Below are positions 46,214 through 48,244 of a stretch of 64,000 nt of DNA, piece by piece. The notes beneath the pieces are model-generated. The model made no database searches. It was not told the origin of the DNA and saw only the letters and a program-made list of their open reading frames with translations. The stretch's first letter is position 1, and each line of letters opens with the position of its first letter. A program made the translations under genes and the position numbers. The DNA comes from Eremomyces bilateralis CBS 781.70. Taxonomy: Eukaryota. The stretch is from the NCBI GenBank assembly GCA_010015585.1, contig ML975156.1; one strand, written 5' to 3'.

Positions 46214-48244
46214 TTATTCCAATTCGATCGTTCCCGGCGGCTTGCTTGTAATGTCGTAAGTGACGCGGCACACCCTAAGAAGTATGTAAGTAAACGGTGG
46301 CATAAAGATGCATTGGTTATCCTAGATGGCTGTGGTAGAAATACGTACCCATGAACTTCGTTCACAATCCGATTCATGACCCTTTGTAAGAAGTCCCAAG
46401 GGAATTCAACTATCCAGCAAGTTAGCCTGTGTCATATCCAGGCCAAGGTAAGCACAGCTGCTGGGATTAGATCACTTACAGGCTTCCGCGGTCATGTAAT
46501 CTGTGGTCGTAACGGCTCTCAAAACGATGATATAGCCGTAAACACGCCTATCTCCCATGACACCCACGGCGCGACTCGGGTCGACTGCTGCATAGGCCTG
46601 GGAGATATTGTTGTACAACCCAGCCTTGCGAATCTCGGAGATGAAGATATGGTCAGCTTTACGGGCAATGTCGACCTTTTCCTGAGATACTTCGCCAAGG
46701 ATTCGGACGGCTATGCCGGGACCGGGGAATGGATGCCGCATCACCAGTTCTTCTTGGATTCCGAGTGTTCGGCCGAGCGCACGCACCTCGTCCTTGTAGA
46801 GGCTTCGAAGCGGCTCAATCAGCTGCATACCTTGCCCATTGGTCATTCTCTCCGGTAGGCCACCAACATTGTGATGAGTCTTGATCGTTGCTGAGGGACC
46901 CTTGAAGGAGAGACTCTCGATGACGTCCGGATATAGTGTGCCTTGGAGGAAGAAGTTGATATTTCCGGCCTTGCCGGAAGCGGCCGCTTTATCCTCAATT
47001 CGCTTAGCCTCCGCCTCGAAGACATCGATGAACTTGCCACCGATGAACTTTCGCTTTTTCTCGGGATCTGAAACGCCCTTGAGACCGTCGAGGAACTGTT
47101 GTGAAGCATCCACAACGGTTAGATTGATCCCTAGGTGCTCCTTGAGATCTTTCTGTACTTGATCGCACTCGTTGAGTCTCATGAGACCATTGTTGACGAG
47201 GACTGCCCAGAATCTGTCACCAATGGCCTCCGTCATGAGTTTCGCCGCAACAGTGGAATCAACACCTCCGCTAACAGCTCCTAGGACCTGGCCTGTTTCG
47301 CCGACGAGCTCACGAATCTGCGCAATCTCTTGCTCTAAGAAGGCATCCATAGTCCAGTCTTGTTTGCAGGCGCAGATATCGATGGCGAAATTTTTCAGTA
47401 GCTGAGTCCCATTCTGCGTATGGGTGACTTCGGGGTGAAACTGCAACCCGTAGATCGGCTCTGTTTTGTGAGCAATGGCGGCGTACTCAGAGTTGTCAGA
47501 TGTTGCCACGGTGTGAAATCCCTCGGGAAGTTTGGCCAACTTGTCACCGTGACTCATCCACACGCGCATTGAACCCTCAAGGTCTTGGAATAGACGGTCG
47601 ACATGCCCATCGATCTTTTGCGCTTTAAGTATGGAGTGACCATACTCTCGGTGCGTGCCGGCGATAACATTTGATGAATCCGCACGGTATGCGATCTCCT
47701 GCATACCATAGCAAATGGCAAGAATGGGCACATTCAGGTCAAAAACCGCGGGATCAACGTGAGGGCTCCCTTCTTCGTAGACTGAATACGGCCCTCCTGA
47801 GAGAATGATGCCCTTGGGTGTGAAGTCCAGCTCAGAGATCTTCTGAGTGCATGGGAGCATCTCCGAGAAGACATTGAGTTCACGGAGTCGGCGGGAGATC
47901 AGGTGGGTGTATTGTGACCTATCTCAGCGTAAGTGCGGATCCTTCTATCATCTCATTAGAGAATAAATTTGACAAATTCCCCTGACGCACTCCTCCTATC
48001 TCATACGGTGAACATGCTTTGTAAGATTAGACACCGTATATTTAGTGAATTGATAGAGGAATGAGTCACCTCCAAGGAGAACAGCTCAGCAATTGTTCAC
48101 CATCTTAATAGATCTGAGGGGAAGTGCTTCAACATATTCAAGCCATGGATTTTTCCTGCTTTTAATAGAGAACGCAAATTTGAATGGGCCTTACCCGAAG
48201 TCAAGAGTTAATATGGTGTCGAATGATTTGTGAGGAACAGCCAT
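46214..48244 (-). CDS. GUA1: GMP synthase (glutamine-hydrolysing); introns 47919-48194, 46410-46479, 46275-46348
   Basis: [50 protein letters not shown]-terminal [14 protein letters not shown]. Confidence 0.97.

Follow-up and report, generated by a model that had tools for sequence, protein, structure and literature searches.

Why would a fungus carry, seventeen codons into its gene for GMP synthase, an intron as long as 276 nucleotides? The question arises in Eremomyces bilateralis CBS 781.70, in a stretch of 64,000 nt from contig ML975156.1 of assembly GCA_010015585.1, which is here called the window. A first-pass annotation, made from the letters alone, described this intron as highly structured, saw competing non-productive splice sites within it, and proposed that it is a splicing switch operated by guanine nucleotides or by a protein, or otherwise the seat of an intronic non-coding RNA. 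The alternative is, of course, that the intron is an ordinary one that has grown.

The host gene and its introns

The gene lies on the minus strand of the window. That it encodes GMP synthase, as the annotation had it, is borne out by Pfam, which finds a GATase domain (E 4.2e-41) and a GMP_synt_C domain (E 3.2e-17) in exon 2. In the sequence, an ATG at 48244-48242 starts a coding stretch of 50 nt (codons 1-17), and the exon boundary at 48195/48194 reads GG|GUAAGG. The frame restarts past UAG| at 47919/47918 and then runs for 479 codons, with SQYTHLI following the split codon 17 (GG|G). Codons 1-17 fit the pattern PHKxFDTILxLDFG, which is conserved in orthologues.

Coding exon 2 (46480..47918), which holds the GATase and ATP-pyrophosphatase domains, is defined by its open reading frame, by Pfam and by tblastn with an orthologue, whose coverage extends over 47917-46484 and takes in the next small exon. 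The rest of the gene was laid out from sequence and tblastn, with splice sites chosen by eye: an intron of 70 nt (46479-46410), the small exon (46409-46349), an intron of 74 nt (46348-46275), and the last exon with its stop TAA (46274-46214). These two introns are without RNA support.

For the 5' part of the gene, RNA support comes from the contigs of one public run (X1), which represents one condition and whose identity as RNA is a guess. Contigs were sought at a threshold of 80% likeness, and all 8 that were placed are at least 99% alike and unique. The depth figures delivered by the tool are contig-wide k-mer values, and are quoted here as rough indications only. Three splice joints are present among these contigs, of 276, 53 and 50 nt, and all three read CT..AC on the plus strand, which is GT..AG on the strand of the gene.

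The largest of these joints, 47916->48193, skips 276 nt at a tool depth of 835. The 276-nt GT..AG intron after codon 17 (47919..48194, GUAAGG...UAG) is real and normally spliced, and both the sequence and the exact contig joint agree with the span that the first-pass annotation had assigned to it (48194-47919). Its description as about five times the usual length is fair, as 276 nt is 4-5 times the 50, 70 and 74 nt of the gene's other introns. It had further been called the first intron of the gene. This holds for the coding sequence; in the transcript it is the second, because the 50-nt joint lies in the 5' leader. There, an intron with the ends GUAAAU...UAG (48283..48332) is removed by the joint 48282->48333 (CT..AC, tool depth 574). 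The start-codon exon between the two introns (48195..48282) is seen both in the sequence and in a contig piece, 48193-48282, that is joined to 48333-48395.

Several features of the surroundings may be recorded here. The leader contig carries the GMP synthase transcript to 48395 at least, and 4-5 nt inside its end begins a candidate upstream open reading frame of 9 codons (48362-48391, minus strand; MFISPEYRK, then a stop). A palindrome with CACGTG (48464-48479), some 75 nt farther upstream than that contig reaches, is a candidate promoter element; CACGTG occurs in 7 copies in the 64-kb window. The upstream neighbour (48746-50263, minus strand) is an open frame of 505 codons that matches Fungal_lectin_2, an alpha-galactosyl-binding fungal lectin, at E 1.7e-40, and its 3' end is covered by a contig of 2666 nt from the same run. 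On the plus strand opposite the intron, only short stop-to-stop frames were found.

The branch point of the 276-nt intron would most naturally lie in CACUUAC (47929..47935), whose A at 47930 stands 11 nt before the acceptor G, and which takes part in the outermost helix of the MFE fold. The partner in that helix is the outer donor itself: GUAAG (48190-48194) is perfectly complementary to the CUUAC within 47929-47935, and their pairing closes the whole intron. Such a helix could join the ends of the intron, or it could compete with U1.

A second intron inside the first

Competing internal splice sites had been proposed for this intron, and one pair of them is used. The joint 48016->48070 skips 53 nt (CT..AC on the plus strand); it is carried by one contig of 58 nt, at a tool depth of 10.2, with 28 letters on its shorter side. 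The nested intron so defined (48017..48069) uses the CUAAU (48030-48026) and the acceptor AAG (48019-48017) that had been noticed in the loop of the hairpin, together with a donor, GUGACU (48069-48064), that had not been named. At 53 nt it is of a size with the gene's introns of 50, 70 and 74 nt, and its branch A lies 10 nt before its end. Its distance to the outer donor is 125 nt, that to the outer acceptor is 98 nt, and its removal leaves the junction GGAG|CAUG.

Unspliced contigs from the run cover the outer acceptor (47890-48018, tool depth 32.4), the hairpin (47989-48099, 24.6) and the outer donor (48070-48222, 26.1). Taken with the joints, these rough figures suggest a few intron-containing molecules for every hundred spliced ones, with the 53 nt missing from a sizeable minority of the former. 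Three bins at 48428-48568, between GMP synthase and the upstream gene, are without cover from the run; the unspliced contigs may be pre-mRNA or DNA in the run.

Might the nested intron be a working step in the removal of the outer one? Here, the 53 nt would be taken out first, the outer intron would shrink to 223 nt, the hairpin would be destroyed, and a spliceosome that relies on intron definition would be helped. The nested joint (tool depth 10.2) does coexist with unspliced contigs over the same positions (24.6), the nested intron has a size that is canonical for this gene, and nested introns in fungi that are excised from the inside out are described in PMC8469720. The outer intron has, however, its donor, branch region and acceptor intact in any case, so prior removal is not required here in the way that true stwintrons require it; GUGACU and AAG are weak as donor and acceptor of the nested intron; and the order of the steps is invisible in the final mRNA. 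A functional, stepwise removal from the inside out is accordingly a reading that we think unlikely, if by no means fanciful.

The nested intron is not the only intron-like unit in the interior. A motif scan finds four donor-like motifs there (at 48069, 48034, 48006 and 47990), two copies of CUAAU, and four complete combinations of donor, branch point and acceptor, of 46-90 nt. Shuffled sequences hold on average 1.15 donors and 0.27 combinations; four donors were reached in 2.4% of 1000 shuffles and four combinations in 0.6%, while at least one complete combination appeared in 17.8%. These figures lean towards significance, because the donor pattern was written after GUGACU, the donor in use, was known. 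Read with that in mind, the excess is the only sign here that the interior may consist of intron-like units rather than of random filler.

A second such unit (47945..48006) combines GUAUGA (48006-48001) or GUGCGU (47990-47985) with CUAAU (47959-47955) and UAG (47947-47945), and no splice joint for it is present among the contigs of the run. The individual motifs listed by the first-pass annotation, that is, the CUAAU and AAG of the loop, GUAUGA, GUGCGU and the second CUAAU..UAG, were all found in the sequence. Its statement that the alternative products are non-productive also stands, for each alternative that was traced reads out of frame.

Folding of the intron

The hairpin occupies 47983..48068 on the minus strand and appears in both the MFE and the centroid fold. 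It is an imperfect inverted repeat, with a lower stem made of UGAC/GUCA, CAUUCCUC/GAGGAGUG and UAUC/GAUA, and an upper stem that pairs 48039-48032 with 48010-48003. The helices that had been named earlier all form where they had been placed, save that GGAGGUG was one position off and lies at 48073-48067. The MFE fold contains both the long hairpin and the helix of UUCCCCU with AGGGGAA.

To have a hairpin is, of course, not the same as to be highly structured, and the latter claim depends on how the comparison is made. The whole intron folds with a z of -1.59, which 15 of 200 shuffles equal or better; its antisense strand gives a z of -0.72. For a hand-picked stretch of 101 nt around the hairpin, z is -2.27 and 4 of 200 shuffles do as well or better. 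That stretch had been picked for its good folding, hence the choice of the best window was repeated in every control. When this is done, the best 100-nt stretch of the intron, at -29.8 kcal/mol, is matched or beaten by the best stretch in 27 of 200 dinucleotide shuffles. The same control with native sequence finds that 8 of 77 GC-matched segments of 276 nt from the window (GC 0.36-0.44) fold as well.

Considered as a single 100-nt window, the hairpin ranks in the top 0.6% of GC-matched windows (8 of 1288). A rank of this order is to be expected when the best is taken from about 36 overlapping windows. The stability of the intron is within chance, and its description as highly structured does not survive these controls. 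As a possible fold the hairpin is genuine; in statistical terms it is unremarkable.

Its position relative to the splice sites is another matter. The 5' arm and the loop of the hairpin are the nested intron, and the 3' arm carries the two unused donors GUAUGA and GUGCGU. Because the 5' arm is the nested intron, hairpin and nested splicing are mutually exclusive. This exclusion is compatible with a switch; an inverted repeat in which the donor-like GUGAC falls by chance would produce it equally well.

Pairing is also possible with the neighbouring exon, where a segment at 48211-48224, CACCAUAUUAA, can pair with 48026-48039, 48098-48108 and 48130-48138, probably by chance.

Known RNA families and copies of the intron

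If the intron held an RNA of a known kind, models of that kind might recognize it. A cmscan search against Rfam at E<=10 over 47600-48600 returned four matches at chance level, no riboswitch among them; the best, at E 3.2, scored 18.7 bits where the gathering score is 70. Over the whole 64-kb window, no match reaches its gathering score, and a tRNA scan yields no gene. Curated aptamer models, in particular, find nothing in the intron.

The suggestion that the intron hosts a small non-coding RNA processed from it, whether a snoRNA or a microRNA-like hairpin, can point to an intronic hairpin of about 90 nt and to two weak cmscan matches that belong to C/D families (E 3.2 and 3.6). Both fall far below their gathering scores, at 18.7 against 70 and 12 against 45 bits, and one of them extends over the 3' splice site into the exon. 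By eye, the intron shows no box C (UGAUGA) suitably spaced from a box D (CUGA), nor does an ACA box follow the hairpin; neither the C/D nor the H/ACA layout is present. The orthologous introns, moreover, lack the structure. The intronic non-coding RNA offered by the first-pass annotation as its second choice thus has chance-level matches to Rfam and no recognizable box layout, and we hold it to be highly improbable.

Nor is the intron one of a family of repeats within the sequences searched. Blastn against the window and the 80 orthologous loci described below returned only chance matches of 11-23 nt (best E 0.19), and no second copy was found among the contigs placed at 80% likeness.

The same position in other fungi

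The query for a scan of metagenome sequences was residues 1-191 of exon 2, and 80 fungal loci were kept of 239 relatives. In 51 of the 80, DFGSQY is uninterrupted and the DFG/SQY site is without an intron. Another 19 loci, representing 16 distinct sequences, have an intron at exactly the same site, with lengths of 47, 50, 51, 51, 52, 53, 53, 56, 58, 59, 60, 62, 63, 67, 67 and 95 nt. One locus (L003) has a contig that starts within such an intron, 7 have an intron a few bases downstream of the site, and in 2 the contig is cut.

A quick maximum-likelihood tree, built from 64 distinct rows, places the window with the loci L001, L003 and L025 (SH-aLRT 98); the protein identity between the window and L001 is 85% over 183 columns. 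At the DFG/SQY site, the intron of L001 has 63 nt and that of L025 has 67 nt. Same-site orthologous introns being 47-95 nt long, and the site being empty in 51 of 80 loci, the additional 200 or so nucleotides and the hairpin would be specific to the lineage of the window. On this comparison of sequences, the position of the intron appears old, and its length, hairpin and nested unit appear peculiar to this lineage.

The hairpin itself is found in none of the 16 distinct same-site introns, as far as the metagenome loci reach, and the orthologous introns gave nothing alignable in which a conserved structure with covariation could be seen. The first-pass annotation had named just such an absence of structural conservation as evidence against its proposal.

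The nearest relatives have an arrangement of their own. In L001 (about 2275-2500), L025 (about 2352-2500) and L003 (1-95), the intron of 63-67 nt is followed by a micro-exon of 18 nt, SQYTHL, and by a second intron of 50-143 nt. This second intron ends in the rare acceptor AAG and is absent from the window; it would represent a gain or a loss within a tight clade. In the window, 10 nt (48007-48016, minus strand), CAUGUUCACC, stand between the nested acceptor AAG and the donor-like GUAUGA. This layout of acceptor, tiny segment and donor recalls the micro-exon of the relatives, with no significant similarity in sequence.

A likeness by eye between the relatives' introns a and b and the two units of the window, the nested intron (B) and the second intron-like unit (C), was pursued by 12 global alignments with 500 interior shuffles each. 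The best of the 12, B against intron a of L001, has a z of 3.06 and is equalled by 3 of 500 shuffles, which is not robust for 12 tests; B against intron b of L025 gives a z of 1.4, with 44 of 500 shuffles as good. No alignment scored robustly, and homology of the two units to these introns was rejected.

The orthologues also bear on an explanation that has nothing to do with RNA. The extra sequence might hold a transcription-factor site and act as an intronic enhancer of a purine gene. The motif concerned is TGASTCA, one form of which, TGACTCA, we take to be of the Gcn4/CpcA and Bas1 type. It occurs only 4 times in the 64 kb, once at 48062-48068, and in the orthologues it is about 2.5-4.5 times denser in the 800 nt that precede exon 2 (0.32 per kb) than elsewhere (0.07-0.13 per kb; 14 sites, in 10 of 62 loci). 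This is, however, a single 7-mer found post hoc, it is lacking in 52 of the 62 orthologues, and it overlaps donor-like sequence here and likewise in L041. An enhancer function is, on this record, very doubtful. A second TGASTCA in the GMP synthase gene lies at 47550-47556, and the copy at 48062-48068 coincides with the nested donor.

What, then, of regulated splicing? Under this proposal, a ligand or a protein would shift the intron from a hairpin that conceals the internal donors to alternative pairings or back, and would in this way set how much GMP synthase transcript is productively spliced. Several observations speak for it: the hairpin excludes the nested intron, an alternative helix exists, the unspliced and nested forms stand at a few percent of the tool depth figures for the exons, and every alternative product read from the sequence is out of frame. 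Others speak against it. No aptamer model in Rfam matches, the structure is within chance and is absent from all 16 distinct orthologous introns, and a full-text literature search found no report on splicing control of fungal GMP synthase, its only match being a paper that names guaA genes in a deposit statement. TPP is, moreover, the sole class of riboswitch known in fungi according to PMC5882874. Operation by guanine nucleotides or by a protein, the leading suggestion of the first-pass annotation, is left unsupported by aptamer match, excess stability or conservation, and we regard a regulated switch as quite improbable.

The most probable reading

The explanation that we favor, and hold to be probable, is that this is an ordinary spliceosomal intron, enlarged at an old position, with minor nested splicing. 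On this account, an intron at the shared DFG/SQY position would have grown in this lineage from about 50-95 nt to 276 nt, with the outer sites GUAAGG and UAG giving the main product. Fungal spliceosomes pair splice sites over short distances, by intron definition. The inserted sequence would happen to hold a unit of 53 nt with donor, branch point and acceptor, which would be removed in a minority of the transcripts that contain the intron. Such removal should be harmless if the outer sites are used afterwards, and would otherwise leave the transcript out of frame. The hairpin would be an imperfect inverted repeat of the inserted sequence, without demonstrated function, and the nested splicing would be a by-product rather than a control step.

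Three observations sit less easily with an ordinary enlarged intron. Intron-like motifs exceed their number in shuffled sequence, the hairpin ranks in the top 0.6% of single GC-matched 100-nt windows, and the hairpin is found at the same place as the nested donor and both cryptic donors, as a switch would require. One might imagine that the nested intron and the donor-hiding hairpin together form a young, lineage-specific kinetic switch, through which guanine nucleotides or a protein divert the pre-mRNA into out-of-frame forms. We rate this as very improbable; if true, it would be a post-transcriptional brake on GMP synthesis in this fungus. A splicing event that answers guanine nucleotides would be of far greater importance than an enlarged intron, TPP being the one class established in fungi.

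The ordinary reading has its own uses. It would add a further documented case of a canonical intron within a canonical intron, in a housekeeping gene. For annotators, it would mean that minor nested junctions and apparent retention at this place are neither separate genes nor errors, and it would inform studies of how fungal introns grow. The intron at this site has been kept, lost or shifted among the loci compared, and the closest relatives have a second one beside it. The 5' end of the gene is thus a small natural series in which the gain, loss and expansion of introns can be followed.

Comparison with known systems

Three kinds of unusual fungal intron invite comparison. Introner-like elements, as parts of PMC3609843 present them, share with this intron a length greater than that of regular introns and a predicted hairpin. 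Such elements exist in hundreds of near-identical copies; of this intron, no second copy was found in the window, the 80 loci or the contigs of the run. A predicted structure stabler than regular sequence is expected of them, whereas the fold here is not unusually stable (it is equalled in 27 of 200 shuffles and in 8 of 77 segments of native sequence), and the intron position is apparently old rather than new.

The introns with TPP riboswitches in fungi, as parts of PMC3597705 and PMC5882874 describe them, belong to biosynthetic genes, and in them a structure within the intron lies close to competing splice sites whose alternative products are non-productive. All of this is shared by the intron in GMP synthase. 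In contrast to those introns, it has no aptamer match, no conservation in orthologues and no known ligand.

The closest likeness is to stwintrons, the nested introns studied by Flipphi, Fekete, Karaffa and co-workers. Those of the [D], [L] and [A] types, stwintrons sensu stricto, share with the present case nested U2 introns in a gene of the Pezizomycotina type, and parts of PMC8469720 report that some stwintron families have inverted repeats able to form hairpins, and that the fungal spliceosome prefers the smallest possible intron. In those types, by definition, the inner intron breaks up one of the outer splice motifs; here, removal of the inner intron yields no new splice motif at GGAG|CAUG. 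The inner intron (48069-48017) lies clear of the outer donor (48194), branch region (47935-47929) and acceptor (47919), and because no outer splice motif is interrupted, this is not a stwintron sensu stricto.

The wider class, stwintrons sensu lato as parts of PMC8469720 define it, comprises inner introns of normal size, each with a donor, a branch point and an acceptor to itself, that lie within an outer GT..AG intron. The present inner intron differs from the described cases in that it spares the outer motifs, which, being uninterrupted, make it needless for outer splicing, and in that it is known from a minor contig, where the order of the reactions cannot be read. Two features of the class are nevertheless observed, the outer canonical excision in the joint of 276 nt and the inner canonical excision in the joint of 53 nt (one contig of 58 nt, in one run); a third would be consecutive excision, the inner intron first, on the way to the mature mRNA. 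The nested unit in the GMP synthase gene of E. bilateralis is a canonical intron inside a canonical intron, a probable stwintron sensu lato.
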